Shown here in pieces: positions 3,041-27,697 of a stretch of 32,000 nt of DNA. Under the pieces are notes generated by a model that was not told the DNA's origin, did no database searches, and worked only from the letters and a program-made list of their open reading frames with translations. Source of the stretch: Flavobacteriaceae bacterium. GTDB lineage: Bacteria > Bacteroidota > Bacteroidia > Flavobacteriales > Flavobacteriaceae. Each line of letters begins with the position of its first letter. Positions within the stretch are counted from its first letter, which is position 1. The stretch is from positions 60,001 through 92,000 of the forward strand of contig OZ245049.1 in assembly GCA_965224465.1 (NCBI GenBank), in the 5' to 3' direction. The position numbers were made by a program, and so were the translations under genes.

Positions 3041-4077
3041 TAAGTAACGATATATCTTTGTATAAAAAGGAAACTAAATTATTATTTAAAAAGATTCAAC
3101 AAGAGAGAAAATTTGCAGAGTTTATTGATGAATTAATAAATAGTTATGGTGACTTAATGGATCATATTGATTCCTTTTTATTAAAAGAACAAAGTGAATT
3201 AATCTTACAAATTAAAGGAAGAATCTTAGGATATTATAATGAAATAAACAAAGGAGACTCAAATGATGAAATAATCAGTGAAATAGAATTTAATCAGCAG
3301 AAAGATAAGACTTATTCAATTGATTTAGAGAGAAGTGATGGTTTTAAAAATGCAGGTGTAATTTTAAGTGAAGGGCATTTAAGATCGTTAGGATTATCTA
3401 TTATTTTATCCATAGCTGAATCATCTAATGTTCCATTTATAATTTTTGATGATGTTGTAAATGCTATTGATTCTGAGCATAGAGCAAATATTATAGACAT
3501 GATGTTTGACAATAAATTTTTAAAGAAAATTCAAATAATTGTTACAACTCACGATAGATTATTCTGGGAGAGATTTTGTAATATATATTCTAGTAAAATA
3601 AATAGAAAAGAACTATCTTCAATTAGCTCTTGTTTTAAATATCAAAATCAAGGAATTATCTATGTACCTTATCAAATTTCTTTTGAAGAAAAGATTAAAG
3701 AAGCATTATGTTATTCGGATATTAGACAGGCTTTAGTTTATTTAAGAATATGGTTTGAGACAATATGTTTCAATTACTGTAAAATGGCAAAAAAAACCAT
3801 TACTGGTCAATTTTCGCAAGATAATACAGGTAATTCATCACAATTAATGGTTTCGTTGACTAAAGTTTACAATAACATTATAACTCCCTCTTTTTCGTCA
3901 AGTGATAATTTAAAAGTAATTAAAGACAAATTAAATTGGAAATTTTTAAATCAAGAACATCACTCGTTTGATGAAAACATATTTAATGTAACTCATTCAA
4001 CAACGAGTAGTGAAATTGAAGATATTTTTATAGCAATTAAAAATTTTGAACAAGAAGTATTACAATCAAATAAATAA
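3041..4077 (+). pseudogene. 5'-truncated ABC/SMC-type (AAA_13/PrrC-RloC-like) ATPase gene, cut by the IS30 insertion
   Basis: The ORF-track ORF 3034-4077 starts at a TTG inside the IS30 right IR. The product has a signature-like LSEGHLRSLGLS, a Walker B PFIIFDDV, a D-loop AIDSEH and an H-loop VTTHD. It has no Walker A anywhere. A coiled-coil-like stretch precedes the signature, and about 170 aa of unassigned C-terminal sequence follow. Confidence 0.65.
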
Positions 4078-11156: not shown

Positions 11157-11404
11157 TTTAGTGTCTATATTTTGAGTCTTGTGTCCTTTAATTTTCAATA
11201 AGTATTATTATTAATGGACTGCTTAAGACGGTTGTTTATTGCCTTGCTTCTAAAATTTTTTTAAAGAAGCCTCTTTATTGTTTTTCAAATCTTTTTTTAA
11301 TCCCACCAGTGGGTTTAATTTTCCGATGCTTGTATCGAAATGATTAAGGGTTGTTTTCTCTTTTTTATGCCTCGTAGTCCTGAGCTTATTGACTGTTGTA
11401 TTTC

Positions 11405-11564: not shown

Positions 11565-14500
11565 TTATGCTTCCTGAATTCCAATGGCTAAATCTGTCAA
11601 TTGATAGATTCTTGTGCCTTCGTTCCACAGATACGCATTGGCGATAATTACCAAGGTGTCTTCTCGTTTTTCGATGGTTTTAAAATGCACTTCTAAATGC
11701 ATGTTTTCCACGTTTACTTTAATTTGTCCGCGGTATTTCCATTCGGTTTTATTATTAGCGACCTGTACAAAGCGTGGTTTTTTAAAGTCTTTTCCTAAGT
11801 CTTGTTGTAGGGCGAATAACTGCATGGCTTGTGAAATGGCTTCGACGCCTAAGGATCCTGGCATTACAGGGTCTGAGTAAAAATGACAGGTAAAGAACCA
11901 GTCGTAGGTATGGATGGCTTTGGAGCAATGGATGTATCCTTTGCCAAATTCGCCGCCGTCTTTTACGAGCAATCCGCTGTCTAGTAAATTCAATTGATCT
12001 GTTGATAAACGGAAGGTGTTTGTTGGATCATTTTCTTTATACAATTTCATTTTTGCGTATAAAGAGTCGAGCTTGATTTGGAAATAATCCTTGGGGGTCA
12101 ACTTGTTTTGTACATACCATGCGGGTACGTCTTTCCCATTGTCCAAGCCTACTTGTTGTGCCAAGGCTTCTTTAGGGAAGAATCCGAAGGAGGAGAATCC
12201 TTTATAGAACACATAGCCGTCTACGGAGACTTCGAAGAGGTATTTCTGAATTACAAAACCGCCTAATGCCGTTGAGGAGGTTAAGGTTGCTTTGTTGTGA
12301 ATTACTTTTCCTCTAAAGTCGGTACCTGCGGGGAGGTCGATCATTTCGCCATCTCCATCCAAGTTTCTAAAGTATAAATCTTTGTCTGGGAATTGTAGGG
12401 TGGATCCTAAATAGGCGCCTAACAATCCACAGGGTTGCAATGCTATTTCCATTAAAATGGCGTACGGCATGGTCATGGAAGCGTTTTGTGTGTAATACCA
12501 CGCATCGGCTGGCACGTCGTATTCTGTCCAAATATTTGTTGCTTTTTTAAAGTTAAATCGTTCTCCGTCTATTTTAATAACACGGCTTACGACTTGCAAG
12601 TCGGTATTTGGTTGGCGGGACAAGGCTCTGTTGTCATACACGGCGTATTCTGGACCAAAACAATCTGCCAATCTGCCTAAGGCAAAGGTTTCGATGTCTT
12701 GTTCGTTGAGCAATACGTTCTCGGTTATTTTTTTAGGTTGTTCTAGGTATTTTGGATTGTCTTTTTCTCTTATTTGCAATCCTAAATCGGCAAAATGAAC
12801 GGTAATTACACCGTCTACAATAATTTCTAAATCGCCAATCACATAAGGGTCTGGCAACAATCCGATGTCTTTAATTACCAAGCGATACATTAATTTCTTA
12901 TCATTAGGGGTCACTTCTTTTCTACAACGTACTTTTTGAGCAACTCCGTAGATAGGTTGGAAACGTGCATCTTTTTTAAGGCGTTGTAGCCCTAGCATCA
13001 TCATAAAGAAACGGAGTAAGTTACCGCCGCCTTCTGCTTGTAAAGATCCTGCCAATACTTGGTCGTCTCTAAAATGACAAGGGAAATACCAATCGTCTGG
13101 ACTTAGGTCTTTTTCTGCTATAATTTCTCCCAATCCATAAGGACCTCCGTGGACGTCTGCTTTGGTAATGCGATCCAACATCAGCATTTTTTCTGGTGCT
13201 AAACGGATGGATTTATTTTTACCGTTGGGGAAGTAGGAGATATCGTCAAAACATGTATGTGCATCTCCGTTGATAAGATGTCTTAAATCCTGAATATCAA
13301 ATGCGGTCTTTTTAGTAGTTAAAAAGGGAATGAATTTTTTCTTTTCTACGCCCGCTAAAATTTTCTTTTCAGCTTCGGTATATACAACACCATTTCCTTT
13401 ACTCAATTCTTCATCGGTAAAGAAGCCAGCCACTCCATTGGTCATTTTTAAGACAAGGCGGTCTTCTACAAAGCATTCGTAGCTAAAGAAGAACAATAGG
13501 TTACGTCCATTTCTTACAAAGGAATTGATAGAGATATCATAACGTAGGGTTTGCCCTTCAAAAGGCAGGTCGTCCGTAAAGGTAAGCGTACAGTCGAGTA
13601 GGCGATAGACATAGTCTCCTTTGTTTTCTAAGTCGATGCCTAAATAAGAGATCAACATCAAATCACATTGTCCTGATTCTACCGAAACTGCCCATGGGAT
13701 TTGTGTATCGGTGGCATAGCCTGAATTGTAAGGAATGTCGTATTCCGTTTGCATGGTAGACGGTTTGTATTCGCCTAGCTTGGCATTTAATCCTGTGACT
13801 CTACTCACCAATAGGTAAGGATCCATAGGAAGCATCACACGGCGTTTGTATTGGTCGATTACATTGTATTCCGCACCAAAGACATTGCTTATTTTACCTT
13901 CGGAAAATTCGATTAAATCTTCTTTGTTAAAAATAATGTTTTTCCCTTTTAAATGATTTGGGTCTGTGTAATCTTGTAATTTTAAGCCGTTTTCTGCGAT
14001 TGTTGTTGCAGTTTTAGGTGTTGTGTTAGCTATCATATACCTTTTTTTCTCTAATGTGTTTGTGCTAGTAATTGGGATTTTTAAGTCCGTTTTTTGGGGT
14101 GTATTTGCTTCTTTCTTTAGGTGTTTAATTTGAGCAAATTGATGTTTCATATCTTCGGATAATAAGACATCGTATATACGTCTTCCTCCTGTTTTAACTT
14201 TTTTGCTAAATCTTTTTTTAAGGATTGTTTCTTGTTGTTTTGGATATAACAGTCCTAGGTCTACCTCAATGCCGTTTGCAATTAATTGTGCCAAGCACTC
14301 GAACAATGATTGTACGGAACTGCTTCCTTTCTTATCGATGGCACAGCTAGCATGGGTTTTTTGATCCAAGGTTCCTTTGATCCAATTGCTACAGGTACTA
14401 TTAGGGCCTAGCTCTACAAAAGTGCTAAAGCCATTTTTTGACATTTGATGAGCAAAGGCAGGGAAATCTACTGTTTTATAACATACTTCTGTCGAATTTT

Positions 14501-17500
14501 GGGCGATTTTTAAACTGTCCATCGGAAGTTTTTTTCCTGTTAAACTAGAGTAGAATTCGATGTCAGGACGTTGTTCCAAAGGGAAATTGTGCATTTCAAT
14601 AAGTCCGTCGTATTCCTTTTTACAGAATTCGTTATGAATAATGTTTTGAAAGGGAACCAATATAGATCCACAATTTAATTCGGAGATAAGGGCTTTACAC
14701 TGGCTTTTATCACCCGAAATAATCAATTCCTTGTCCGAATTCACAAAAGTGATAGAGACTTTGTCAAATTTAGAAATTACAGCTGCAACGTCTTCTTTTT
14801 TTGCTAATAAAATCCAGCTTTGCCACCTTTCTTTTGCTTCGGTTGTAGTTATATTCCACGCATCTGCCAATACTTCTAAGTTTCCAGAAAATTTATTTTT
14901 AAAGATAGGGGAGTTGCGAAACACCTTGGTACCTTCACTTGGATTCCAAACACCAAAAGCATACCACATAGAACTGCATTCTCCCATGCTATATCCCATA
15001 GCAGCTTTTGGTTTGATACCAAAATAGTTTCTTAAAATATGGGTGTACAACGTGGCGTATAAAACACCTGCCGACATCATAGAAATGGCGTCTTTTTGTA
15101 TGGGAGGAGTCTGTTCTGCGGTGGATTGTTTTTTAGGGAAAATATAATTTAAGGAAAAGAATTCCTTAAGGTTTGGAATGCGTGTTTCAAAATCGTGGAG
15201 TAGCTGGGGGAAGAATTGAAATAAATCCTGTCCTAGCCCTTCATAACTGGTGGCGGATCCTGGATATACAAATGCTAAATCTCCCTTGGCTGCCGAGGGT
15301 GTTGGTGTAAAGAACGTACCGCTTGGTAATTTGAGGTCTGTCCCTGTTTTAAACGAAGTGTCTACTTGTTTTTCTAAGAATTTAAGGTCTTGTAAGAGTG
15401 CGTTTTTATCCTTAGCAATCAATACAATTCGATGGCTTTTTTTAAGGGTTTTTTCCTTGTTAAAATGTGCTTGGGCTAGGGCATTCAAGCTTGTTGTAGC
15501 AATGTTTTTGTGAAGGGTTGCTATTTGTGCTTTGAGCTCGTTGGCATTGTTTCCTTGTAAAACCAATATATGCGTACCCAAATAATTATTGATAGGTGCT
15601 TTGTCTTCTCTGATTACTTCTGACAATTGCACGCGATCTTGCAATCCTAAATTCACCATTGCCTGTCTCGGAACAGCTGTTTCGTTTACCCAAGGTCTTG
15701 ATTGACTAGGGAAATAATAATTACTGTTTTTGAGTGCCTCATTTTTAAAAGCTTTCCAGTTAGGAATGCCTGGGATAAATTGATGGTATACACAAAGTGC
15801 TGTCTTTACGATAGCTGCCAGTCCAGAAGCGGCAAAGGTATGTCCAATGTTTGTTTTTACCGATCCTAAGGCAACCTTGTTTAAGGGTTTTGCTTGTATT
15901 AATTGTGCTTGCTCTAATTGGTCTTCTTGGTGAAACCCTGTAGCGACTAATTCTTGCAAAGCGATATTGGGATGGATGTCTAAATCACCAATGGCTTCTA
16001 TTTTTGCATAGACAGTATCTGCTTTAGAGACATCTTCATTGGCTTTTAAAACGATGGCTGCGGCTCCTTCACCAATCAACCAACCGTAGTCGTCTGCATT
16101 AAATGATAGGCTAGGGCGTTTGTTTTGGTTTACCTGAGTGACTAAATTTCTCAAGAGTACAGCTTCCATTCCTGCGGAGAATTCTACAGCACCTACAACT
16201 ACGGCATCTACTTCGCCTAAGGACAACATGTTTTGTGCAACTTCTAAGGCTCTGGTGGTTCCTTGATTTCCGTTACTAATGGTAAAGGAAGGCCCACTGA
16301 AATCCCAAAGGGCAGAAATACGACTCGACATAATATTTCCTACAAAACTTGTATGCTGACTCGGCGCTTGTACCTTTCCTATTTGATATAGGATGTTTCT
16401 ACACTCTGCTAAAAGGGTTGTTTTTTGAGTTTTGTCTAAATCGATACCTGCCATGGCTAAGGCTTTGTCCAATTGCCATTGACTGTCCCAACGTGCTAAG
16501 TAATGATGAATTGCCAATTCTGGATTCATGGCAACTAATACCGCTACGTTTTGTCCCTTTTTAAGATTCGATTTTTGAATGGCTTGATCCGCCACTTTTA
16601 AAATCAAGGCTTGTTGAGGTTCCATGGTATCAATTTCGTTGGGTTGGATTTTATAACGCATTAAATCCATGTCAAAATCAGCAATGTAATTTCCTTTCGG
16701 TGCCTGTTTTGTATCTAAACCAAAGGAAGCCATGACTTCTGATTGGGCTTCAAATCCTTTCCAACGATTCTTTGGCATCTCAGAAAAATGCTGTTTTCCT
16801 TCAAAAATAGTTTGGTAAAAATGATCTAAATTATCGCAATCGCCAAAATGAACTTCCATACTGGTAATTGCCATTTCTTTTAGAGGGGTCGCTTTTAAAG
16901 GGCGATGTGCATCTTTATTATGGCTTTCTACGACCAAATGCGCATTGGTACCACCAAAGCCAAACGAATTGACCGCGGCTTGCTTATGGTTTGTTTCCCA
17001 TTTTAAAGGTTCTTCTATGATTTGCTCTCGTTGAAACCAACCATTTTCTGACTGAATGGCTTCGCCCATATTAATTCCAGGAGGAATCATATCGTGCTCC
17101 ATAGAAAGCAATACCTTTATTAAACTTGGCATACCGGCTGCGGTAAGCATGTGTCCCATATTTGACTTTACAGAACCCAATCTGATTTTGTCTGGGTTTT
17201 CACCAAAAAAACTTTCTAAAGAATTGATCTCTGTGACATCGCCAAGGGGAGTTCCAGTAGCATGACATTCGATATAAGAAGTGTCCTTTTTAGAGAGACT
17301 TCCATTGTAGGCTCTTTCATACGCCAAGGTTTGTCCTTTTGGATTGGGGCTTAATAAAAATTTACCAGCACCATCATTGGACAATCCAATACCTGCAATC
17401 ACACCGATAATAGTATCTCCATCTCTTTCGGCATCAGACAATCGTTTTAATAAAATCATTCCTGCGCCTTCGGAAGAGACCAAGCCAGAAGATTCCTTGT

Positions 17501-18251
17501 CTAAGGGAGAGTATTTCTTGTCATGTGCTGCATAGGCATGGAAAATAGAAAATCCCATGTGGATAAACAATTGGTCGGAAGAACAAACTGCTCCTGCCAA
17601 CATCATGTCTGATTTCCCTGTCAATAATTCATCACAAGCCAATTTTATAGCGTATAATGAACTGGCGCAAGCGGCATCTAAATCAAAATTAGTTCCTTTT
17701 AGCCCTAAAGTGTTTTTTACCAACTGAGAGACATCGCCCTGTAAAGGATTGTTTGTTGGAATGTCGTATTCTGTTGCTGGAATTTTAAAATCAGGGTCTT
17801 TTAAAAGGATTTTTAATCCTTTTTCTAGTGTTTTTGTATAAACAGGCGCCAATATTTTATGCGAGGAAGTTGTAGGGAAAGATAAATTTCCGAAAATAAC
17901 ACCGCAAGAATCTAAGGCTTTGGATTTATTCCAATAACCTCCGTCTTGTAAAGCGTCCTTTGTTACTTGTAAACCCCATTGGTAAATTTGGTCTAAATTG
18001 TCGAGGTCATCTCTTCCAAAGTCTTTCGGATCGAATTTATAATCGCGGATATAACCGCCACGAAGGGAATAACAACTGTCTATAATTCCTTTGTCTTTTT
18101 TGTAAAATATGTTTGGGTCGGCACCAAAATCTTCTTTGGTTGCCATGCCTGTCAAATCCTTTTTGTTCATCAGGTTGTTCCAAAACTCTTGCAAGGTTTT
18201 AGATCCTGGGAAAAGGGATGACATTCCGATGATTGCTATTTTTTCTTTCAT
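11565..18251 (-). CDS. pfaC: PUFA synthase subunit with KS-CLF-AT-DH(FabA-like)-DH(FabA-like) domains (PfaB/PfaC-type functions in one 2228-aa protein)
   Basis: The KS has DAACASSLYA, CHATGTPLGD and NMGHMLTAAG. The second KS-like domain lacks the active-site Cys (FTISNGNQGTT; TNIGHTFAASG), which marks it as a CLF. The acyltransferase has GYSMGE (GxSxG). The two FabA-like dehydratase motifs are FPCHFRDDQVLAGS and FTCHFYSDPVMPGS. The ORF-track start at 18305 is a TTG, so I prefer the ATG at 18251 (MKEKIAIIGMS). Confidence 0.9.
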   Translation of the reverse strand: MKEKIAIIGMSSLFPGSKTLQEFWNNLMNKKDLTGMATKEDFGADPNIFYKKDKGIIDSCYSLRGGYIRDYKFDPKDFGRDDLDNLDQIYQWGLQVTKDALQDGGYWNKSKALDSCGVIFGNLSFPTTSSHKILAPVYTKTLEKGLKILLKDPDFKIPATEYDIPTNNPLQGDVSQLVKNTLGLKGTNFDLDAACASSLYAIKLACDELLTGKSDMMLAGAVCSSDQLFIHMGFSIFHAYAAHDKKYSPLDKESSGLVSSEGAGMILLKRLSDAERDGDTIIGVIAGIGLSNDGAGKFLLSPNPKGQTLAYERAYNGSLSKKDTSYIECHATGTPLGDVTEINSLESFFGENPDKIRLGSVKSNMGHMLTAAGMPSLIKVLLSMEHDMIPPGINMGEAIQSENGWFQREQIIEEPLKWETNHKQAAVNSFGFGGTNAHLVVESHNKDAHRPLKATPLKEMAITSMEVHFGDCDNLDHFYQTIFEGKQHFSEMPKNRWKGFEAQSEVMASFGLDTKQAPKGNYIADFDMDLMRYKIQPNEIDTMEPQQALILKVADQAIQKSNLKKGQNVAVLVAMNPELAIHHYLARWDSQWQLDKALAMAGIDLDKTQKTTLLAECRNILYQIGKVQAPSQHTSFVGNIMSSRISALWDFSGPSFTISNGNQGTTRALEVAQNMLSLGEVDAVVVGAVEFSAGMEAVLLRNLVTQVNQNKRPSLSFNADDYGWLIGEGAAAIVLKANEDVSKADTVYAKIEAIGDLDIHPNIALQELVATGFHQEDQLEQAQLIQAKPLNKVALGSVKTNIGHTFAASGLAAIVKTALCVYHQFIPGIPNWKAFKNEALKNSNYYFPSQSRPWVNETAVPRQAMVNLGLQDRVQLSEVIREDKAPINNYLGTHILVLQGNNANELKAQIATLHKNIATTSLNALAQAHFNKEKTLKKSHRIVLIAKDKNALLQDLKFLEKQVDTSFKTGTDLKLPSGTFFTPTPSAAKGDLAFVYPGSATSYEGLGQDLFQFFPQLLHDFETRIPNLKEFFSLNYIFPKKQSTAEQTPPIQKDAISMMSAGVLYATLYTHILRNYFGIKPKAAMGYSMGECSSMWYAFGVWNPSEGTKVFRNSPIFKNKFSGNLEVLADAWNITTTEAKERWQSWILLAKKEDVAAVISKFDKVSITFVNSDKELIISGDKSQCKALISELNCGSILVPFQNIIHNEFCKKEYDGLIEMHNFPLEQRPDIEFYSSLTGKKLPMDSLKIAQNSTEVCYKTVDFPAFAHQMSKNGFSTFVELGPNSTCSNWIKGTLDQKTHASCAIDKKGSSSVQSLFECLAQLIANGIEVDLGLLYPKQQETILKKRFSKKVKTGGRRIYDVLLSEDMKHQFAQIKHLKKEANTPQKTDLKIPITSTNTLEKKRYMIANTTPKTATTIAENGLKLQDYTDPNHLKGKNIIFNKEDLIEFSEGKISNVFGAEYNVIDQYKRRVMLPMDPYLLVSRVTGLNAKLGEYKPSTMQTEYDIPYNSGYATDTQIPWAVSVESGQCDLMLISYLGIDLENKGDYVYRLLDCTLTFTDDLPFEGQTLRYDISINSFVRNGRNLLFFFSYECFVEDRLVLKMTNGVAGFFTDEELSKGNGVVYTEAEKKILAGVEKKKFIPFLTTKKTAFDIQDLRHLINGDAHTCFDDISYFPNGKNKSIRLAPEKMLMLDRITKADVHGGPYGLGEIIAEKDLSPDDWYFPCHFRDDQVLAGSLQAEGGGNLLRFFMMMLGLQRLKKDARFQPIYGVAQKVRCRKEVTPNDKKLMYRLVIKDIGLLPDPYVIGDLEIIVDGVITVHFADLGLQIREKDNPKYLEQPKKITENVLLNEQDIETFALGRLADCFGPEYAVYDNRALSRQPNTDLQVVSRVIKIDGERFNFKKATNIWTEYDVPADAWYYTQNASMTMPYAILMEIALQPCGLLGAYLGSTLQFPDKDLYFRNLDGDGEMIDLPAGTDFRGKVIHNKATLTSSTALGGFVIQKYLFEVSVDGYVFYKGFSSFGFFPKEALAQQVGLDNGKDVPAWYVQNKLTPKDYFQIKLDSLYAKMKLYKENDPTNTFRLSTDQLNLLDSGLLVKDGGEFGKGYIHCSKAIHTYDWFFTCHFYSDPVMPGSLGVEAISQAMQLFALQQDLGKDFKKPRFVQVANNKTEWKYRGQIKVNVENMHLEVHFKTIEKREDTLVIIANAYLWNEGTRIYQLTDLAIGIQEA

Positions 18252-18329
18252 TTTTTTAATGGTTGGACGGTTGGGGTATTTGGATTTGGTTGGGGCGTAT
18301 TGCAATACGCCCTTATTTTATACATTGGC

Positions 18330-20618
18330 TTACCATTTTAATCCAGGTGATACCGTTAATCCTGCGCCTTGTGTGAATAAAAATACCTGTCCGTTTGTAT
18401 CGTACACAGTACAATCTGCGAACATTTTTGACACTGTATTTTCTTGTATTTTGATATGTACATAAAAACTGGTGTTGGCAGGAATATCTCCATAGACCAA
18501 TCCTTTTAATGTTTGTAAAGGCAAACTGTTGGCACCTTGGTGATATTTCTGTACCCAGACCACCATTCCTTGGTATTGTATGTCTAAGAAAAAGGCATTT
18601 AAACTGGTGGTTGGAAATTGCCCTTGGTCTTTATAAGAAACCTCAGGGGCTTTACATTTTAATACCATTTCTTGTTGGTTCATTAATACGACCTCTTCAA
18701 TACCTTGGTAAAAAGCGCCGTGAAATAAGGAACCATCCTTGTAGTATTGTGCACCTTTTATTTTTTCTCCACTTAATTGAGGGGCTTTAAATGTTGGTTT
18801 CTCCGCTCTCTTACGATCTAAGGTTACCGTTGCACGATAATGATTTAAAGGCAGTTTAGCGCCTTTGCTATAAATGGTTACTTCACAAACAATGCTATCC
18901 GCAGTTTTAGTGATTTCCTTTACATCTGTGAAATAGTATTCTTTTTCTGTTCCATCGAAAACGATGCCTTTAAACAATTTCACATTTTCGATACCTGCTA
19001 ATTGGTAATCAGGGAATAATTTGACACAAGAATCTGCCATCCATGCCGTTGCATTTACCATTGGCAATACGGGGTTTCCTTGAATCACATGGTGGTGTAA
19101 GAAATTATTATCGGCAAGTGCTAATTGTCGTTGAATGGTATGTGTTTTAGGTTCTCCAGAAATATCTGAAATTCCTGCAGGCAAGGTGCCTCCAATAATT
19201 ACTTGTGGTTGGTTGTGATATGCGCCATTCAATTCCTGTACAAAACGTGCCGCTCCTCCTGGATGATTTACCAAGGAAACACCCGCTTCTTCAAACATTT
19301 TTTGCAATGCTGGACTTACCATTCCGCCTTCCCAAGCACCCCAATTGATGGCAGTAACCTTGGTATTTGGATGGTTGGTACTAAATAGATGTGCTGCAGT
19401 ACTTAAAATCTCATTTGCCATTGCATAATCGGACTGTCCAACGTTTCCGTAAAAACCAGCGACTGAAGAGAACATGATAAGGTGTTTCAATTCGTTGATA
19501 TTGACCATTTTTAATAGCTGTAACAAACCGTCTAATTTTACAGACGTTACATTGTCAAAGATCTCTTCTGTTTTATCTTGAATTAATTTATCTGCTAAAC
19601 GACCGGCACCATGAATAATTCCGGTAATTTTCCCCCATTGTTTTTCTATTTTTAATAGTTGAGGTTTGATGTTGAGGTTGGTAACATCACCCGCAACATA
19701 TACAGCGTCACCACCGTTTTCTTTGATGATGGCAATGGTTTCTTCAATTTCTTTTTTGGCAGTGAATTTGCTAAAAGTACGGTTCAATGCTTTGATAGAA
19801 ACTTTTTCTCCGCTGGATTTCATGGCTTGCATGATGGCAGCTTTAAGTTTCGCAGGATCGTTTTCATTTATAGCATATGTTGGGAGTTCAAAATCCAAGG
19901 AAGACCTTCCTACTAAAATAAATTTGGAATGGAATGCCTTGTTCAGCTCCTTAATACAAGTTGCCGTTACACCACGACCACCACCAGCGACTAAAAACAC
20001 ATCTTTATCGGTCACGGTTTGTTGATAGGCTTGGTCCGTAGGAACTTCATTCAGTTGCACATCGTAGGTGCTTCTACCTTGTTTGTTGATAGCAACATCT
20101 ACATAACGCAGATCTGCATCGTGTAATTCTAAGAATAAATGAGTTGCGATTGCTGTTGCGGACAATTCTGGTTGTACATCTACCGCTCTACAAAATACGG
20201 GAGACCATTCTAAATTCATACATTTTGTCAATCCAGACAAACCACCTGCAATAATAGACATGTCAGAGCGTTTGCCCATTCCAAATTTCCCGTCCAAACG
20301 AGATACCGTCATAAAAGCAGTACGTTGGGTCTTGCTATTGGCATTTAAAGGAGCTTGTAAATACTTAGCCAATAAGAAAGTCGCTTTTAATAAGGCGCGT
20401 TCTTCCGTAAAATGTTGGGTAAAATTATGACCAGTAAATGTAAAATGTGGATGCAAATAGATAAAAGCACCAATTGTTTGTTTCGCGAGAATGCTATCTA
20501 TAGCGGTTTTGATGTTTTGATCGTTTATTTGTGGAATAACAACCGTATTTTGTAAGGAAGTGTTTTTCTGAAACCCATCGAATTGTAGTACGATTACTGT
20601 ATGTCCTTCACGTTCCAA
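18330..20618 (-). CDS. pfaA: Ketoreductase plus PKS-type dehydratase (the KR-DH portion of canonical PfaA), present as a separate ORF
   Basis: The KR has a Rossmann motif VFLVAGGGRGVT and the catalytic SDYAMANE. The DH has HHVIQGNPVLP (HxxxGxxxxP). The annotated start at 20618 is a TTG. The frame stays open upstream to 20849 with no ATG/GTG/TTG, and encodes conserved-looking sequence (..LLPVVITDEGSELTIAV..). See the A10 finding. Confidence 0.85.
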   Translation of the reverse strand: MEREGHTVIVLQFDGFQKNTSLQNTVVIPQINDQNIKTAIDSILAKQTIGAFIYLHPHFTFTGHNFTQHFTEERALLKATFLLAKYLQAPLNANSKTQRTAFMTVSRLDGKFGMGKRSDMSIIAGGLSGLTKCMNLEWSPVFCRAVDVQPELSATAIATHLFLELHDADLRYVDVAINKQGRSTYDVQLNEVPTDQAYQQTVTDKDVFLVAGGGRGVTATCIKELNKAFHSKFILVGRSSLDFELPTYAINENDPAKLKAAIMQAMKSSGEKVSIKALNRTFSKFTAKKEIEETIAIIKENGGDAVYVAGDVTNLNIKPQLLKIEKQWGKITGIIHGAGRLADKLIQDKTEEIFDNVTSVKLDGLLQLLKMVNINELKHLIMFSSVAGFYGNVGQSDYAMANEILSTAAHLFSTNHPNTKVTAINWGAWEGGMVSPALQKMFEEAGVSLVNHPGGAARFVQELNGAYHNQPQVIIGGTLPAGISDISGEPKTHTIQRQLALADNNFLHHHVIQGNPVLPMVNATAWMADSCVKLFPDYQLAGIENVKLFKGIVFDGTEKEYYFTDVKEITKTADSIVCEVTIYSKGAKLPLNHYRATVTLDRKRAEKPTFKAPQLSGEKIKGAQYYKDGSLFHGAFYQGIEEVVLMNQQEMVLKCKAPEVSYKDQGQFPTTSLNAFFLDIQYQGMVVWVQKYHQGANSLPLQTLKGLVYGDIPANTSFYVHIKIQENTVSKMFADCTVYDTNGQVFLFTQGAGLTVSPGLKW

Positions 20619-20824
20619 TTTGGATTTTACAGCGATTGTTAATTCGCTTCCTTCATCGGTAATAACTACAGGTAGTAGGCTAGGGATGTGTTGTACTAAG
20701 AAATCTACTTTAGGAATAAATTTTATAGCGATAGATTTTCGGGGTACTTTGTGAAAGTTAGTAGGTAAGGAGAAGTCCTGTGTCGGTATCTTCTCCTCAC
20801 GTACTGTATTGTTTGGGGCTAAGC

Positions 20825-23800
20825 TTAGACTAGGCTTGGACTTTTTTTTTTACTTGAAATTCCTGCCTTTTCAGAAATATAATCTACAATTTCTTGTAAG
20901 GTTCTCAATTCTGTAAGATCGTTTGGATTGATGTCCGTTAATTTATCAGATTGCTCTGTAATGGCACCAAAGATCTCTACACGTTTGATAGAATCGATTC
21001 CTAAATCAGCTTCCATATCCATGCTCAATTCTAACATCTCCGCAGGATAACCAGTTTTCTCAGCAACTACGCTTAACATTAAGTCTAGCATTTCTGAGTT
21101 TCCAGCAGTAGGAGCAGCAGTTTCAACAACAGGTGTTGCTACAGGAGCCGCAGCTGTTGGAGTGGTTGCAGTTGTTGCAATTCCCGCTTTTGCAGAAATA
21201 TAATCTACAATTTCTTGTAGGGTTCTCAATTCAGTAAGATCGTTAGGATTGATGTCCGTTAATTTATCAGATTGCTCTGTAATGGCACCAAAGATCTCAA
21301 CACGTTTGATAGAATCGATTCCTAAATCAGCTTCCATATCCATGCTCAATTCTAACATCTCCGCAGGATAACCAGTTTTCTCAGCAACTACGCTTAACAT
21401 TAAGTCTAGCATTTCTGAGTTTCCAGCAGCAGGAGCAGCAGTTTCAACAACAGGCGTTGCTACAGGAGCTGCAGCTGTTGGAGTGGTTGTAGTTGTTGCA
21501 ATTCCCGCTTTGGCAGAAATATAATCTACAATTTCTTGTAAGGTTCTCAATTCAGTAAGATCGTTAGGATTGATGTCCGTTAATTTATCAGATTGCTCTG
21601 TAATGGCACCAAAGATCTCAACACGTTTGATAGAGTCGATTCCTAAATCAGCTTCCATATCCATGCTCAATTCTAACATCTCTGCAGGATAACCAGTTTT
21701 CTCAGCAACTACGCTTAACATTAAGTCTAGCATTTCTGAGTTTCCAGCAGTAGGAGCAGCAGTTTCAACAACAGGTGTTGCTACAGGAGCCGCAGCTGTT
21801 GGAGTGGGAGTGGTTGCAGTTGTTGCAATCCCCGCTTTGGCAGAAATATAATCTACAATTTCTTGTAAGGTTCTCAATTCAGTAAGATCGTTAGGATTGA
21901 TGTCCGTTAATTTATCAGATTGCTCTGTGATGGCACCAAATATCTCAACACGTTTGATAGAGTCGATTCCTAAATCAGCTTCCATATCCATGCTCAATTC
22001 TAACATCTCCGCAGGATAACCAGTTTTCTCAGCAACTACGCTTAACATTAAGTCTAGCATTTCTGAGTTTCCAGCAGTAGGAGCAGCAGTTTCAACAACA
22101 GGTGTTGCTACAGGAGCCGCAGCTGTTGGAGTGGGAGTGGTTGCAGTTGTTGCAATCCCCGCTTTGGCAGAAATATAATCTACAATTTCTTGTAGGGTTC
22201 TCAATTCAGTAAGGTCGTTAGGATTGATGTCCGTTAATTTATCAGATTGCTCTGTAATGGCACCAAAGATCTCAACACGTTTGATAGAGTCGATTCCTAA
22301 ATCAGCTTCCATATCCATGCTCAATTCTAACATCTCTGCAGGATAACCAGTTTTCTCAGCAACTACGCTTAGCATTAAGTCTAGCATTTCTGAGTTTCCA
22401 GTAGTAGGAGCAGCGGTTTTAACAACAGGTGTTGCAATTGGAGCTGTCGGAGTAACTGTAGCCGTAGTTTGAACAGGTATAGGAGTTACGATGGTTTCTG
22501 TTATCGGTGTCGCTACTGTTGGAGTTTCAATAACTAAAGGAGCAGCAGGAGCTTCTAAAATATTCTGATCCGCTGTAAAATTACCAGATAACAGGGATAA
22601 TAATTGAGCAGTTTGCTTGTTTTGTTCCATTAAAATAGTTTGGAACATATCCAATGTCTTGGATTGGTTTTCTTTAATGCCATCGATGGCACTTTTAATA
22701 ACATCTACCCTCATATCGTCTTCTGTATCTTGTTCAGTACTAATTTCACTTATATAGGTGGGAACTTCCTTGATCACTTCTTTGATCACTTCTACTTCCT
22801 TAATCACTTCTACCGTTTTAATAATTTCTGTAGCAGTGCTTATTTTAAATCCGTTATTTAAAACGTCTTGATACGCTTTTTGCGTAGCAGGACTTACATA
22901 ATTGTTTCCTGCAATTCTCACTGCCATTTTAGGTTGGGCTAGCGGAGTAGCTTCTTTACGAGCATTGGTATCAATAGCTCCCAATTCACATCCTAAAACT
23001 TGCAATTGTAGCGCAGCTTCTCTAATTTGTAAATCACTGTTTTTAGCAGCTTTCGCATTGGTAGCTATGACAAAATGTTCTTTGTCTGCTAAGATATCTT
23101 TTACCAAGTTTGATAAAATAGACTTGGGACCAAATTCAACAAAAACTCTGGCTCCAGCAGCATACATATTTTCAATTTCACTTTTAAAATCCACGGAGTT
23201 TAAAATGTGTTGTGAAAGGATATTTTTGATGCTACTTGTTTCGGTAGGATATGCTTTTCCTGTAGAATTTGAATACACAGGAATTGTTGGACTTTTAAAT
23301 GGTATTGCTTTTATATTTTTTTCAAAAGGCTTTTGTGCATGTCTCACGCAATCGGTATGGAAAGCGGCAGAGACAGGTAATAAAACAGAGCGGTATTTTT
23401 TACTGTCTAAAAGTGCTTTTGCTTTTGTGATGCCTTCTGTGGTTCCACCTAAAACGATTTGGTTTGACGAATTGATGTTTGCAATAGAAACCCCAGTAAT
23501 ACTTTTGATTAAAGGTTGGATTTCACTAGCAGCAGCTTTTACGGCTAGCATCGTACCCGCGTCTCCACTTGTACTTTTACTTGCCATGGCTTTACCACGA
23601 GCAATGGCTAAGGTCATGTAGTCGTTTTCGCTCAGTACGCCCGATGCACAAAGTGCGGTAAGCTCACCAAAACTATGACCAGCGACCATGTCGGTTGTAA
23701 AACCAGCATTTTTAAATACCTTATAGTATCCTAAACTAATGGCACCTATTGCAGGTTGTGCAAATTCTGTATTGGTAATATTTTTTTCTAATGTTGCTTT

Positions 23801-25711
23801 GTCTGTATCGTTAAAAACAGGTTTTGGATATATTTTATTGGCTAAATCAAAGCCTTTTTTAGCATCAAAAGCAGCAATGGTTTGTTGGATAGTTTCAAAA
23901 CTACTCGTTGCTTCTTTTGCCATGTTCGCATATTGAGAACCTTGACCTGAGAACAAAGACGCCACTTTTAGGGTCTTAGAGATTCCGTTAGGTCTAAAGA
24001 AGATTCCTTTGGGATGTGACCACTCTTTCGAGTTGTTTTCTAATTGTTTTACGGTGATTTCCAATTTAGAAATACAGTCACTTAAAGATTCAGCAACAAA
24101 ACCTACACGTGCTTCGTGTTGTTTTGCGGTACCTTGTTTAGAACTTTCTTTTAAATTGTAAAATGCAGTAGTTAGCTCTTTTGAATTTAAAGCTATAATC
24201 GTATTTTTAATGTTTTTTAGCAATTCAGTAGCATTCGCAGCTTTTATGTAAATGCTGTGAAAGGCTTGGTGCATTCTATCGGTAAACGAAGTGTTGTTTT
24301 GATACTCTTCCATGGCAAAGTGCACGTTGACTCCACCAAAACCAAAAGCAGATACACCAGCTCTACGCGGTGTTCCATTTTTGAACCAAGGTCTGGTTTC
24401 TGAGTTTACATAAAAAGGAGATTTTTCAATCCCAAATTTTTCATGAGGTTTGGTAACATTAATAGTTCCGGGCAATACTTTATGATACAATGCCAAGGCA
24501 GCTTTGATCATTCCAGCAGCACCAGCGGCTGATTTTGTATGTCCAATTTGAGATTTTACAGAACCAATTCCAATATGGTTTTTCTCGGTGTTATTTTTAC
24601 CAAACACCATGGTCATTGATTCAAATTCAGCAGCATCTCCAGCACCAGTTGCCGTACCGTGACCTTCGATTAATTTAACGGTAGAGGCATCATAACCAGC
24701 TTCGTCATAAGCACGTTGCATGGCTAAGGCTTGTCCGTGAGGACGCGGAGCGTATACAGATTTATAGCGGCCATCACTTGAAGAACCTACACCCGTAATT
24801 AAACCGTAAATACGGTCTCCATCACGTTCTGCATCTTCCAATCTTTTTAAGACCAACATTCCAATTCCTTCTCCAATCAACATTCCGTCTGAATCGGTGT
24901 CAAAAGGACGAATGCTTCCTTTTAGTGAAAAAGCAGGAGTTTTTGAGAAGGACATATACATAAAAGGAGAGTTGTCTGTATCGACACCTCCAGTTAACAT
25001 CATATCACATCTTCCTTCGATCAATTCAGATACAGCCATTTTAATAGCCGAAAGTGAAGCAGCACAGGCAGCATCCACAACAGAATTAATTCCTCCTAAA
25101 TCAAAACGATTGGTAATACGACCAGAGATCACATTTCCTAACATACCAGGGAAAGAATTTTCATTCCATCCAATATATGCTTTTTTCATTTTTTCGATGA
25201 TATGTGGAATATCAGCATCGCTAATTCCACTGCTTTTTAAGGCGCGTTCCCAAATAGGAGTTTGCAATCTAGAGGTAAGGGGAGTGATTAGCTTTTGCCC
25301 ACCACCAACACCTAAGATGACACCAGTTTTTTCTTTTAATAAAGCGGTAAATTTATCAGATTTTCTACCATAACCTGCATCTTCAAAAGCATCTCTAGCA
25401 CCTACAAGTGACAGTAATTGAGAAACATCTGTTACCTCTAAAATATTTGGAGGCAAGCCAAATTCCATGGGGTTGAAGTCTACATCTGGAATAAAACCAC
25501 CTTTTTTACAATAGGTTTTATCTGCCTTTCTAGGGTCGGCATCGTAATAATCTTCTATTTTCCAACGCGATGCTGGTACATCAATAATACTATCTTTTTG
25601 TGAGATAATATTATTCCAAAACTCGGCTACATTACTTGCATCCGCAAACATTGCAGACATACCAATAATGGCGACAGGTGTTTTTTTAAGTGAACTGTTA
25701 AAGTGGTCCAT
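20825..25711 (-). CDS. pfaA: PUFA synthase PfaA N-terminal part: KS-MAT-5xACP (1628 aa from the ATG at 25711)
   Basis: The KS has DAACAASLSA (Cys codon at 25066-25064), HGTATGAGD and GHTKSAAG. The MAT has GQGSQYANM and GHSFGE. There are five tandem ACPs, each with LGIDSIKRVEI. The ORF-track start at 25780 overlaps the TetR gene, whereas MDHFNSSLKKTPVAIIGMS begins at the ATG at 25711. Confidence 0.9.
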   Translation of the reverse strand: MDHFNSSLKKTPVAIIGMSAMFADASNVAEFWNNIISQKDSIIDVPASRWKIEDYYDADPRKADKTYCKKGGFIPDVDFNPMEFGLPPNILEVTDVSQLLSLVGARDAFEDAGYGRKSDKFTALLKEKTGVILGVGGGQKLITPLTSRLQTPIWERALKSSGISDADIPHIIEKMKKAYIGWNENSFPGMLGNVISGRITNRFDLGGINSVVDAACAASLSAIKMAVSELIEGRCDMMLTGGVDTDNSPFMYMSFSKTPAFSLKGSIRPFDTDSDGMLIGEGIGMLVLKRLEDAERDGDRIYGLITGVGSSSDGRYKSVYAPRPHGQALAMQRAYDEAGYDASTVKLIEGHGTATGAGDAAEFESMTMVFGKNNTEKNHIGIGSVKSQIGHTKSAAGAAGMIKAALALYHKVLPGTINVTKPHEKFGIEKSPFYVNSETRPWFKNGTPRRAGVSAFGFGGVNVHFAMEEYQNNTSFTDRMHQAFHSIYIKAANATELLKNIKNTIIALNSKELTTAFYNLKESSKQGTAKQHEARVGFVAESLSDCISKLEITVKQLENNSKEWSHPKGIFFRPNGISKTLKVASLFSGQGSQYANMAKEATSSFETIQQTIAAFDAKKGFDLANKIYPKPVFNDTDKATLEKNITNTEFAQPAIGAISLGYYKVFKNAGFTTDMVAGHSFGELTALCASGVLSENDYMTLAIARGKAMASKSTSGDAGTMLAVKAAASEIQPLIKSITGVSIANINSSNQIVLGGTTEGITKAKALLDSKKYRSVLLPVSAAFHTDCVRHAQKPFEKNIKAIPFKSPTIPVYSNSTGKAYPTETSSIKNILSQHILNSVDFKSEIENMYAAGARVFVEFGPKSILSNLVKDILADKEHFVIATNAKAAKNSDLQIREAALQLQVLGCELGAIDTNARKEATPLAQPKMAVRIAGNNYVSPATQKAYQDVLNNGFKISTATEIIKTVEVIKEVEVIKEVIKEVPTYISEISTEQDTEDDMRVDVIKSAIDGIKENQSKTLDMFQTILMEQNKQTAQLLSLLSGNFTADQNILEAPAAPLVIETPTVATPITETIVTPIPVQTTATVTPTAPIATPVVKTAAPTTGNSEMLDLMLSVVAEKTGYPAEMLELSMDMEADLGIDSIKRVEIFGAITEQSDKLTDINPNDLTELRTLQEIVDYISAKAGIATTATTPTPTAAAPVATPVVETAAPTAGNSEMLDLMLSVVAEKTGYPAEMLELSMDMEADLGIDSIKRVEIFGAITEQSDKLTDINPNDLTELRTLQEIVDYISAKAGIATTATTPTPTAAAPVATPVVETAAPTAGNSEMLDLMLSVVAEKTGYPAEMLELSMDMEADLGIDSIKRVEIFGAITEQSDKLTDINPNDLTELRTLQEIVDYISAKAGIATTTTTPTAAAPVATPVVETAAPAAGNSEMLDLMLSVVAEKTGYPAEMLELSMDMEADLGIDSIKRVEIFGAITEQSDKLTDINPNDLTELRTLQEIVDYISAKAGIATTATTPTAAAPVATPVVETAAPTAGNSEMLDLMLSVVAEKTGYPAEMLELSMDMEADLGIDSIKRVEIFGAITEQSDKLTDINPNDLTELRTLQEIVDYISEKAGISSKKKSPSLV
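20842..20851 (-). other. A10 homopolymer (T10 on the + strand) at the junction of the two pfaA reading frames; candidate slippage or frameshift site
   Basis: The coding strand reads AGT AAA AAA AAA AGT CCA AGC CTA GTC TAA in the KS-MAT-ACP frame. The -1 frame through the same run reads AAA AAA AAG TCC AAG CCT and continues uninterrupted into the KR-DH ORF. Confidence 0.8.
20855..22440 (-). repeat. Five near-identical tandem ACP-plus-linker coding repeats (periods 321, 321, 327, 327 bp)
   Basis: The landmark cagaaatataatctacaatttcttgta recurs at 20872, 21193, 21514, 21841 and 22168. Units differ mainly by a 6-bp indel in the Ala/Pro/Thr linker (TPTPTAAAP versus TPTAAAP) and by scattered substitutions. 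Confidence 0.9.
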
Positions 25712-25716
25712 ATATG

Positions 25717-26334
25717 TTAATCTATATTTAAGAATAGGTTTTTTTGTTTTTCGACTTCTAAGAGTCCTTTTTCGGTACATAGTCCTCTTAGGTATGCTAC
25801 CATGATTCCTTCGGTGAGTCTTGATTTAGAAAATTGTGCCGATGGAAATATTTTTGTGTTATTGCATAATTTCAGAAGTGTTTGTACCGTAGACATGGTT
25901 ACTTCTGGATCCAAATCCTTGCGAAACAATTCTTCTTTAATCCCCCATTTAGAAAGATAAAGTAATTCTCTAAATGCAAATTTTGCATTTTTTTTAAAAG
26001 AGTCCTTTAAGATACTTGGGTAATATTTTAAGATGTCCTTGTAAAAGGTAGCATTGCTATAATCAGCTCTTTTTAAGACCTGTTGCTGTATCTTTCCCAT
26101 GGCTTCAATAGCGGAACTCGATTTGTTTATGATTTCGTCGTTGTTGCTTCTAATACTTGCCAAATATTGCTCAATACAGGCTTGCATTAAATCTGTTTTG
26201 TCTATAAAATGATTGTAAATAGTTCGTTTTGAGGTGCTCAATTCCTTGGTGATGTCTGCAATAGTGACAGACTTAACGCCGTTTTTTAAGTATAATTGAG
26301 TGGTGACCTCTATGATATATTCCTTTGTAATCAT
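25717..26334 (-). CDS. TetR/AcrR-family transcriptional regulator, 5 nt upstream of pfaA
   Basis: The N-terminal HTH is VKSVTIADITKELSTSKRTIYNHFIDKTDLM. The size (205 aa) and the helical C-terminal domain are typical of TetR proteins. The stop at 25717-25719 lies 5 nt before the pfaA ATG (25711). Confidence 0.8.
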   Translation of the reverse strand: MITKEYIIEVTTQLYLKNGVKSVTIADITKELSTSKRTIYNHFIDKTDLMQACIEQYLASIRSNNDEIINKSSSAIEAMGKIQQQVLKRADYSNATFYKDILKYYPSILKDSFKKNAKFAFRELLYLSKWGIKEELFRKDLDPEVTMSTVQTLLKLCNNTKIFPSAQFSKSRLTEGIMVAYLRGLCTEKGLLEVEKQKNLFLNID

Positions 26335-26452: not shown

Positions 26453-27097
26453 ATGCATAAAATTTGGCTTCTTGAAATTCAAGAAAACGATCTGGTTTTC
26501 ACAAAAGAATCACTGTTAAATAAACTTCCTAAAGCCCTGCATTCAAGGGCGGATCGCTATTTGAGTACGGCTAGTTCTTTGGCTTATATTGGCGGGAGGT
26601 TGCTGTTAAAAAAAGCCCTGTTAGAAAATGGTTTTCCAAGCTCTTTATTGGAGGAGATCTCCTATTCAAAACAGGGAAAACCGATGATTAATGGATTGAA
26701 TTTTTCGATTTCTCACAGCAATCGGTACGTTTCTTTTTTGTGCAGTACCGCATTTTCTGTTGGAATTGATATCGAAATGAAGAAAAATATTGATTTAAAA
26801 TTATTTGAATATCTATTTACAGTTCAAGAGTGGCAATCAATTGTAAATGCAGAAAATTCTCTAGCTCGTTTTTATTGGTATTGGGTACGTAAAGAAGCGT
26901 TATTGAAAGCTGCGGGCTGTGCTTTGAATGCATTGAAAGAGTTACAGGTATTTGAATCTCATGGTTTTTATAAAGAGAAACGCTATTATTTTAAATCTTT
27001 TGAGTTTGATCCTAATTTTAATGGAATGTTGGCGACAGAGAAAGAGGCGTGTTTTGAAGTAGAGTTGTTAGGTTTTAAGGATTTGTTGATGGAGTAG
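26453..27097 (+). CDS. pfaE: Sfp-type 4'-phosphopantetheinyl transferase (PfaE)
   Basis: The PPTase motifs are GKPMINGLNFSISHS, VGIDIE and WVRKEALLKAAG. The gene is divergent from the TetR-pfaA transcription unit. Confidence 0.85.
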   Translation: MHKIWLLEIQENDLVFTKESLLNKLPKALHSRADRYLSTASSLAYIGGRLLLKKALLENGFPSSLLEEISYSKQGKPMINGLNFSISHSNRYVSFLCSTAFSVGIDIEMKKNIDLKLFEYLFTVQEWQSIVNAENSLARFYWYWVRKEALLKAAGCALNALKELQVFESHGFYKEKRYYFKSFEFDPNFNGMLATEKEACFEVELLGFKDLLME

Positions 27098-27474: not shown

Positions 27475-27588
27475 GAGACCGTTTAATACAACATGAGAAG
27501 GTTGTAATTGGTATTGTGGTTGATCTTTAAAATTGGGCTTCACAGCGTTTTTTTGTAACGTACTTATGTTTGAAATATGAACCTTAGT

Positions 27589-27697
27589 GCATGAGGGATA
27601 GCAATGGCATCCTTTTTTGTATTTTTTTTACAAAAAAGATATAATGGATAGCCCGACCTTTTCTTATTTTTTGGAAATAAGAAATAGGACATGCCCC
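27589..27697. repeat. Intergenic repeat family member Y (related to 11405-11508)
   Basis: Contains gcatgagggatagcaatggc, the all-A/T hairpin ttttttgta-ttttttt-tacaaaaaa (27613-27637), ccgacctttt, a second hairpin ttcttatt...aataagaa, and atgcccc. It lies just downstream of the minus-strand oxidoreductase gene. Confidence 0.5.

Follow-up and report, generated by a model that had tools for sequence, protein, structure and literature searches.

The window analysed here is a 32,000-nucleotide stretch of contig OZ245049.1 (positions 60,001 to 92,000, assembly GCA_965224465.1) from a Flavobacteriaceae bacterium. Its minus strand carries a pfa cluster for the synthesis of polyunsaturated fatty acids (PUFA), in which the pfaA gene is divided between two reading frames at a run of ten adenines. 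The cluster has the architecture of Type D. The [KS-AT-ACPn] and [KR(-DH)] parts lie in separate frames and are accompanied by a fused pfaBC gene [KS-CLF-AT-DH2] and the pfaD enoyl reductase (ER), as identified by Pfam, and the 4'-phosphopantetheinyl transferase (PPTase) gene is the only member on the plus strand. The nearest relatives are found in Flavobacteriaceae (Bacteroidota). Type D clusters were defined by Shulse & Allen 2011 (PMC3098273) and are described in the literature as having pfaA split into pfaA1 and pfaA2; a 2016 Marine Drugs review gives the same two-gene description for Aureispira marina (PMC4882568). Our comparison of orthologous loci suggests that the split is very probably a deeply conserved programmed recoding site and not a gene boundary.

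Anatomy of the pfaA junction

On the minus strand, the junction reads AGT AAA AAA AAA AGT CCA AGC CTA GTC TAA. The A10 run is the sole homopolymer of at least 10 nt in the window and holds an A_AAA_AAA heptamer in the phase of the 0 frame (X_XXY_YYZ). The part of pfaA upstream of the run contains matches to the Pfam families ketoacyl-synt, Ketoacyl-synt_C and Acyl_transf_1 and five PP-binding stretches, and is closed by a 0-frame stop shortly after the run (Table 1). The downstream part, with the Pfam matches KR, adh_short, PKS_DH_N and PS-DH, lies in the -1 frame, which is open from AAA AAA AAG TCC... through to the stop at 18330. The shift between the two is tightly bounded. Since a -1-frame TAA overlaps the 5' edge of the run and the 0-frame TAA follows it, the shift is confined to 22 nt (20849 to 20828), in practice inside the run. 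A single added A yields one open reading frame (ORF) of 2483 codons with the junction ...GISSKKKKSKPSLSL....

The linker segments SKPSLSLAPNNTVR and IPTQDFSLPTNFHK precede codon 78, the first start-like codon of the KR-DH frame. The initial annotation of the stretch had placed the split exactly at A10, with a stop five codons later, a -1 frame open for 77 codons to a TTG with no ATG, GTG or TTG in between, a slippery A_AAA_AAA in the run, and a KS-MAT-ACP5-KR-DH protein restored by a -1 shift or an extra A. Every one of these details proved right on checking. A search of the junction against Rfam matched no family, and a sequence search of the PDB returned only generic KR domains of polyketide synthases (PKS) and fatty acid synthases (FAS).

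Table 1 Coordinates of the pfaA junction and of the surrounding cluster in the window
Feature	Position	Strand	Description	Basis
Slippery A10 run	20842..20851	-	AAA AAA AAA A in the 0 frame; exact length A10 (T10 on the plus strand)	
0-frame stop TAA	20825..20827	-	14 nt 3' of the run, five codons after it; ends the KS-MAT-ACP5 product	
-1-frame TAA	20850..20852	-	Overlaps the run at its 5' edge; bounds the shift window on that side	Translation ...NFK*KKKSKPSL
+1-frame TAG	20830..20832	-	9 nt 3' of the run; shuts the third frame	
First ATG/GTG/TTG of the KR-DH frame	20616..20618	-	TTG, codon 78; mechanical ORF start (762-aa product)	
Linker in the -1 frame	20757..20841	-	(K)SKPSLSLAPNNTVREEKIPTQDFSLPTN; free of start codons; PS, NNTV, KE and KQ[ED]FSLPT conserved	24-relative alignment
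Hairpin	20767..20798	-	GAGGAGAAG (20798-20790) pairs with CTTCTCCTT (20775-20767); 14-nt loop; also written AAGGAGAA/TTCTCCTT	
pfaA 0-frame part (pfaA1)	20825..25780	-	KS, MAT, 5 ACP; C-terminal end ...GISSKKKSPSLV*	ORF list, Pfam, translation
pfaA -1-frame part (pfaA2)	18330..20849	-	Linker, KR structural subdomain, KR, PKS-type DH; 839 codons	
pfaBC fusion	11565..18305	-	KS-CLF-AT-DH-DH	Pfam
pfaD	9552..11198	-	Enoyl reductase	Pfam PfaD_N, FabD_helical_ins
TetR-family regulator	25717..26334	-	Upstream of pfaA	Pfam
4'-phosphopantetheinyl transferase	26453..27097	+	acpT/pfaE-like	Pfam

The junction in orthologous loci

A homologue search over 5.8 billion proteins was performed with the last ACP, the linker and the KR as the query. 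DNA was obtained for 80 genome loci (genome matches numbered at least 195) and 15 metagenome loci by way of the KR-DH protein, a selection that is blind to the state of the junction. The KR-DH lies in the -1 frame at approximately 88 of the 92 orthologous junctions; the others among those analysable are three in-frame fusions and one probable miscall (locus L058). Three loci considered as rule-breakers (L045, L031 and L051) were dismissed, as the effect came from masked N stretches and all three conform. L028, whose sequence begins at a contig end within an A19 tract, is uninformative for the junction. The set covers Flavobacteriaceae (Dokdonia, Patiriisocius, Psychroserpens, Psychroflexus, Maribacter antarcticus and SCB49/Ulvibacter), Saprospiraceae, Lewinellaceae/Phaeodactylibacter and Aureispira, and includes the complete isolate genomes of Dokdonia sp. 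R86516, Patiriisocius sp. Uisw_017 and Maribacter antarcticus DSM 21422. The out-of-frame state is kept down to about 50% protein identity with the downstream ORF intact.

In most loci the ACP frame and the KR-DH frame overlap by about 16–22 nt, always centred on a slippery motif. This is A10 in 33 loci, A9 in 25 and A11 in five, and a short motif elsewhere: A_AAA_AAG (seven loci), A_AAA_AAA (one, with TAA directly after the motif) or G_GGA_AAG (two, again with a stop directly after). All 10 short-motif loci have the X_XXY_YYZ phase. The length distribution is bimodal, with long runs of 9–11, short motifs of 6–7 and never 8. All 26 other Flavobacteriaceae and around 60 more distant loci are out of frame, be the run A9, A10 or A11, and the change needed is -1 at each of these lengths. 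What separates A10 from A11 is a G-to-A substitution where the run ends on its 3' side (A10 followed by G, A11 followed by T), with no insertion or deletion.

The slip motif is conserved at the nucleotide level while its flanks diverge. An uninterrupted A9 is kept even in loci of 55–59% GC, where only about 50% of the Lys codons are AAA. The stops that bound the shift are conserved as well: each of the 20 ungapped Flavobacteriaceae rows has a -1-frame TAA or TGA at the start of the run (TAA 19, TGA 1), and the 0 frame closes within 20 nt of the run in 73/73 loci. In these comparisons the -1 relation recurs at slippery motifs far more often than chance would allow. The initial annotation had proposed comparing the run in orthologous genes and could not favour recoding over its alternatives; with the run or an in-phase heptamer and the -1 state in about 88 loci, the comparative data now favour it.

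Natural fusions complete the series. Lentimicrobium sp. L6 (L097) and the Bacteroidales metagenome-assembled genome (MAG) BB22 (L050) contain TC[TC] AAA AAA AAA AAT CC., in which an A11 run is in frame, and encode one continuous ACP-KR-DH protein (...SSKKKNPLS...). Their polarity is opposite to that of the window and dnaX-like, in that standard decoding would give the fusion and slippage would give truncated forms. In a Saprospiraceae-like metagenome contig the gene is also fused, and the run is lost (TCC AAG GAC AAG GGT). These fusions indicate that the fused protein is viable and occurs naturally, as the recoding model demands. In a neighbour-joining tree of KR-DH they are nested within the recoded clades, which suggests that the long run is likely the ancestral state and that fusions and bare heptamers are derived, each having probably arisen at least twice. 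The remaining odd locus, L058 (a Saprospiraceae MAG, 3951-nt contig), stands alone in having its KR-DH in the +1 frame; its run is A9. If read as A10 it becomes canonical, with a 0-frame TAG 3 nt 3' of the run and the KR in the -1 frame. The probable cause is a homopolymer miscall, the contig being of low coverage; this corresponds to a rough error rate of about 1%.

Probable recoding mechanism and alternative explanations

Under the recoding model, standard decoding would produce a truncated KS-MAT-ACP5 protein that ends five codons past A10. A fixed fraction of expression events would enter the -1 frame within the run and give full-length PfaA (KS-MAT-ACP5-linker-KR-DH, approximately 2483 aa), the frame change being the sole conserved way to obtain a complete KR-DH. 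In the window and the other A9–A11 lineages, one A would be added as RNA polymerase realigns on the T10 template. Related lineages have a bare heptamer in place of the run, with an immediate stop and a hairpin 5–6 nt downstream, and classical -1 ribosomal frameshifting would operate there.

Several features of the window are those expected of transcriptional slippage: an A run of at least 9, kept against the expectation from codon usage, at which a 1-nt insertion restores the ORF. According to Antonov et al. 2013 (PMC3711429), run lengths of 9–11 are within the range cited for transcriptional realignment, and frameshifting in E. coli reporters based on another gene family reached about 40% with A9 and about 63% with A11. 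By these values, a sizeable fraction of full-length product is plausible. Further indications come from the third frame. In 63/63 long-run loci the +1 frame is closed no further than 16 nt from the run, by stops of varied type and position, compared to 39% of random in-gene positions that have a stop within 20 nt; in 6/10 heptamer loci the +1 stop is 41–61 nt away. Because closure of the +1 frame is relevant only if transcripts of other A-counts exist, slippage is slightly favoured over -1 ribosomal frameshifting for the window and the A9–A11 lineages. A contribution of -1 ribosomal slippage on A_AAA_AAA in the window is possible.

It is possible, though less likely, that full-length PfaA in the window is made purely by -1 ribosomal frameshifting on A_AAA_AAA, with no polymerase slippage. 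The in-phase heptamer is present, the 0-frame stop is near in every locus, and the bare heptamers of the sister clades, with hairpins 5–6 nt downstream, could work only at the ribosome. At the bare-heptamer loci the 0-frame stop follows 0–4 nt after the motif, and most of them (the L020 type, L025/L027, L054/L080 and L067) have a 9–12 bp stem starting 5–6 nt downstream, with -11 to -16 kcal/mol; by these features they are textbook candidates for -1 ribosomal frameshift sites. Against a purely ribosomal event, the 60 nt that follow the run in the window lack RNA structure (z = +0.64), and a stimulatory structure about 5–9 nt 3' of the heptamer is missing. Nor do the long-run loci have a consistent 3' structure at frameshift spacing, with z near 0 in Flavobacteriaceae. 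Moreover, the runs are held at 9 or more A, though 7 suffice for the ribosome, and closure of the +1 frame is irrelevant to a -1 shift. A slippage-stimulating hairpin was sought in the 60 nt 5' of the run as well, with none found (mean z = -0.03 across 71 loci).

A hairpin does form further downstream in the window (Table 1). It begins 43 nt downstream of the run, 26 nt past the 0-frame stop. We rejected it as a frameshift stimulator on this spacing, in agreement with the initial annotation, which had considered it too distant for a classical one; it is also irrelevant to polymerase slippage. The hairpin is real and, beyond what had been noted, conserved: across 22 Flavobacteriaceae, 94% of cells are paired, a value equalled by 0/500 shuffles, with slid controls reaching at most 52%. 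One pair covaries (UA, UG, CG). The stems use locally rarer codons (AAG 17/17, GAG 16/18, TTC 19/20, TCC 17/20), whereas the same amino acids in the loop and flanks are encoded by AAA, GAA and TTT. Taken together, pairing, covariation and codon bias suggest that the hairpin is under selection at the RNA level. One arm contains an AAGGAG that resembles a Shine-Dalgarno sequence, and the other contains the Leu codon that gene callers take as a TTG start. It might mask TTG/AAGGAG and so prevent spurious internal starts, stabilise the mRNA where translation is sparse, or cause pausing.

Very stable hairpins (z -3 to -6) were also observed at L021, L023, L041, L045, L053 and L055, 10–25 nt 3' of the A9/A10 run and just past the 0-frame stop. 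Many of them have GGAGG-like and CCUCC-like arms that recall the Flavobacteriaceae hairpin, and their position is not conserved across clades.

A second explanation is that pfaA1 and pfaA2 are separate genes, with KR-DH started at the TTG at 20618, at a non-canonical codon or by termination-reinitiation, and the A run serving as an initiation enhancer. Bacteroidota use A-rich leaders instead of Shine-Dalgarno sequences, which would suit such a role. Many relatives have a TTG or GTG 4–6 codons upstream of the FHGV motif, and both published descriptions of Type D clusters mentioned above count two genes. We nevertheless find this explanation improbable. In 35 of 84 loci, the window among them, the stretch from the slip site to the first conserved KR motif (FHGVxR) is free of ATG, GTG and TTG. 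Only 19 such loci are expected from background codon frequency, indicating that start-like codons are depleted in the linker. ATG occurs there in only 8 of the 84 loci, the positions of start-like codons vary, and the nearest candidate start is at least 80 nt from the run. In L004 (131), L005 (179), L045, L048 (164) and L094 the first start codon is found at codon 116–179, and in Psychroflexus the linker segment SQPSLGVEENNTVIK precedes any start codon. The "TTG start" of gene callers in Flavobacteriaceae is the Leu codon of an invariant FSLPT, which is TTG in 16 sequences, TTA in seven (window included) and CTA in one. This alternation points to synonymous drift of a Leu codon and not to a start codon. 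A pair of separate genes would also not be expected to hold the -1 relation, with a frame open back to the run in every locus, in about 88 loci whose linkers vary from 20 to 41 codons.

Coding conservation extends across the junction. The residues PS, NNTV, KE and KQ[ED]FS are conserved upstream of the FSLPT Leu codon, and the invariant residues P46, D49, T64, E66, G67 and T71 (alignment A1) precede residue 78. In an AlphaFold2 model of the 839-residue -1-frame product, residues 1-36 are disordered (pLDDT <50), and folded structure follows from residue 37 onwards as strands 37-44, 50-52 and 61-64 and helix 69-80 (pLDDT 79-94). The conserved fold begins at FHKVPRK (20736-20756, minus strand). 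The TTG at codon 78 falls inside the predicted helix 69-80 of the KR structural subdomain, so that a start there would delete three strands and most of a helix. Judged by the predicted fold, this TTG is not a plausible native start, which bears out the earlier claim that initiation at 20618 would cost the protein conserved sequence. Independent initiation is thus unable to give a complete KR-DH in the window and in a large share of its relatives. The orthologues are annotated as two genes, yet homology spans the interval 20619-20849 and no start is conserved, so the outcome named in the initial annotation as speaking against a single gene, two-gene orthologues with a proper KR-DH start and no homology over this interval, is not what we observe.

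The state of the annotations is in line with this. Bacteroidota homologues are almost all called as separate proteins of approximately 800-835 aa, with inconsistent KR-DH N-termini (MPTNFH..., LPTNFH..., VPRKS..., MGLKF..., MVCEENTS...), a pattern expected of gene finders where a real start is lacking. The NCBI calls for Dokdonia are 680-aa and 708-aa KR-DH proteins that begin at internal Met residues. The KR-DH family is systematically mis-annotated in public databases. Public entries (e.g. P0027/P0030, Dokdonia sp. Asnod3-C12) begin at many different codons, range from 680 to 825 aa, and carry the NCBI label 'SDR family NAD(P)-dependent oxidoreductase'.

A third explanation is a phase-variable contingency locus, in which slippage during DNA replication toggles PUFA synthesis on (A11) and off (A10). 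A10 tracts are mutable in DNA, as discussed in PMC3711429, and the related Lentimicrobiaceae carry A11 in frame. This is very improbable, given that 0/27 Flavobacteriaceae loci (window counted) are in frame and that in-frame forms appear only in separate clades. The run lengths differ by a substitution at the 3' edge that retains the frame; organisms in the out-of-frame state make PUFA, and the bare-heptamer variants cannot phase-vary. Finally, although homopolymer miscalls occur and one of about 92 loci (L058, A9) resembles one, the chance of a sequencing or assembly error (true A11) or of a recent inactivating mutation in the window is negligible, since the same state is found in about 88 independent assemblies including complete genomes, A9, A10 and A11 all need the -1 change, and the downstream ORF is intact and 89% identical to its nearest relatives, in a state that is near-universal in the orthologues and not sporadic with a decaying downstream part. 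Of the four alternatives that the initial annotation had left open, the orthologue comparison thus supports programmed recoding, does not support phase variation, and excludes sequencing error and recent inactivation.

A number of points weigh against programmed recoding or its assigned mechanism. The support is entirely comparative, and the loci share phylogeny, so that our counts exceed the true number of independent observations. The hairpins at the heptamer loci are individually modest (z -0.3 to -2.3). The choice between slippage and frameshifting for A9–A11 is based on indirect features, one of which, the +1-frame TAG, may in part follow from the conserved Pro-Ser codons CCT AGC. About 58% of the loci have some GTG, TTG or ATG in the linker, and independent initiation could contribute in these species. 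A stand-alone KR-DH may be active, and expression of the A. marina genes in E. coli used the set pfaA, B, C, D and E.

From the conserved features of the junction we infer that slippage takes place, together with its mechanism and efficiency, and that the short-to-long ratio may be the selected trait. An additional A in the DNA should arise easily, yet the out-of-frame state persists, which speaks for an advantage of the truncated product or of a limited amount of the full-length one. This suggests that the two-product output (KS-MAT-ACP5 and full-length PfaA) is itself selected.

Related systems and the biology of Type D clusters

The dnaX gene offers a close parallel in motif usage. The E. 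coli gene relies on A_AAA_AAG and a 3' stem-loop for -1 frameshifting, that of Thermus thermophilus on A9 for transcriptional slippage. The pfaA family would similarly use either a bare lysine heptamer with a hairpin or a long A run, depending on the lineage, with the same motifs (A_AAA_AAG or A of at least 9) and with two products that have a common N-terminus and whose ratio is presumably set. In dnaX the short product results from the shift; in pfaA, the gene of a PUFA megasynthase, the long one would. Unlike in dnaX, an upstream stimulator resembling a Shine-Dalgarno sequence is not evident at pfaA, where recoding is predicted from sequence.

The polarity of pfaA corresponds to that of the IS1/IS3 transposases (OrfA versus OrfAB) and of the Mg-chelatase A-run clusters that Antonov et al. 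2013 (PMC3711429) validated: the 0 frame gives the short product, a -1 shift at A_AAA_AAA/G or a longer A run gives the fusion, and the 0-frame stop is near. Unlike the transposases, pfaA is a cellular biosynthetic enzyme in a metabolic operon, conserved over at least two bacterial classes. Literature searches returned no report of recoding in PUFA, PKS or ACP genes; they covered the 2016 Atkins review, a 2025 preprint and the main text of Antonov 2013. Nor is a frameshift mentioned in the cited work on Type D clusters, P. torquis or A. marina. The mechanism class is well known, and its use by the pfaA family appears unreported in the searchable literature.

The window has the same architecture as the Type D clusters of Psychroflexus torquis, SCB49 and Aureispira marina, namely PPTase, TetR, [KS-AT-ACP5], [KR-DH], [KS-CLF-AT-DH2] and ER. 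In place of a gene 'split into two genes', the evidence here points to one recoded gene. The shift would restore the KS-MAT-ACPn-KR-DH order of the canonical fused PfaA of Type A/B clusters (Shewanella, Moritella, Colwellia). Those genes have a single product and no truncated ACP-only form; a gammaproteobacterial-like homologue (P0041) lacks any KKK or A run between the last ACP and the KR. P. torquis, with pfaA1A2BCD annotated, makes eicosapentaenoic acid (EPA) and arachidonic acid (ARA), and its pfa products are abundant in proteomics (PMC3914696). The A. marina cluster yields ARA in E. coli (PMC4882568, PMC5067506), with a productivity described as "quite low" (PMC5067506). The system is therefore functional in the split configuration.

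The surroundings of pfaA resemble those in P. torquis, where the gene order is acpT/TetR/pfaA1A2BCD, as in the window, and where the cluster is located on a genomic island flanked by transposases (PMC3914696). The mechanical pfaA start, ATG 25780, overlaps the 3' end of the TetR ORF by 64 nt (25717-25780, minus strand), and the KS domain begins only at residue 34; the native start is probably an ATG further downstream. A Flavo-1 small RNA (Rfam RF01705, 64.7 bits, E = 3.7e-12) is found at 27582-27662 on the plus strand, between the PPTase gene and an ORF for an FAD-oxidoreductase, and is consistent with an origin in Flavobacteriia. The far end of the window contains an HTH_38-domain ORF (1947-2951, minus strand) and an AAA_21/SMC_N ATPase ORF (3034-4077, plus strand).

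If the recoding model holds, the Type D architecture of Psychroflexus, Dokdonia, Aureispira and Saprospiraceae would consist of one recoded gene with two products, whose KR-DH protein is at present mis-started or truncated by gene callers. In heterologous EPA and ARA production, expression of KR-DH may hinge on the slippage efficiency of the host. As a tentative extension, recoding may be an obligatory, tunable switch that sets the stoichiometry of KS-MAT-ACPn to full-length PfaA. Its efficiency and the hairpin might sense temperature or growth state, coupling PUFA synthesis to cold adaptation, in a family that may have switched repeatedly between slippage, frameshifting and re-fusion at one codon position. 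The junction would be a deeply conserved case of cellular recoding, to our knowledge the first inside a PKS/FAS-type megasynthase, and, with an A run or a heptamer and hairpin depending on the lineage as in dnaX, it would provide a natural evolutionary series in which the two recoding mechanisms can be compared. It would also lend itself to studying why selection maintains a set ratio between the truncated and the full-length protein.

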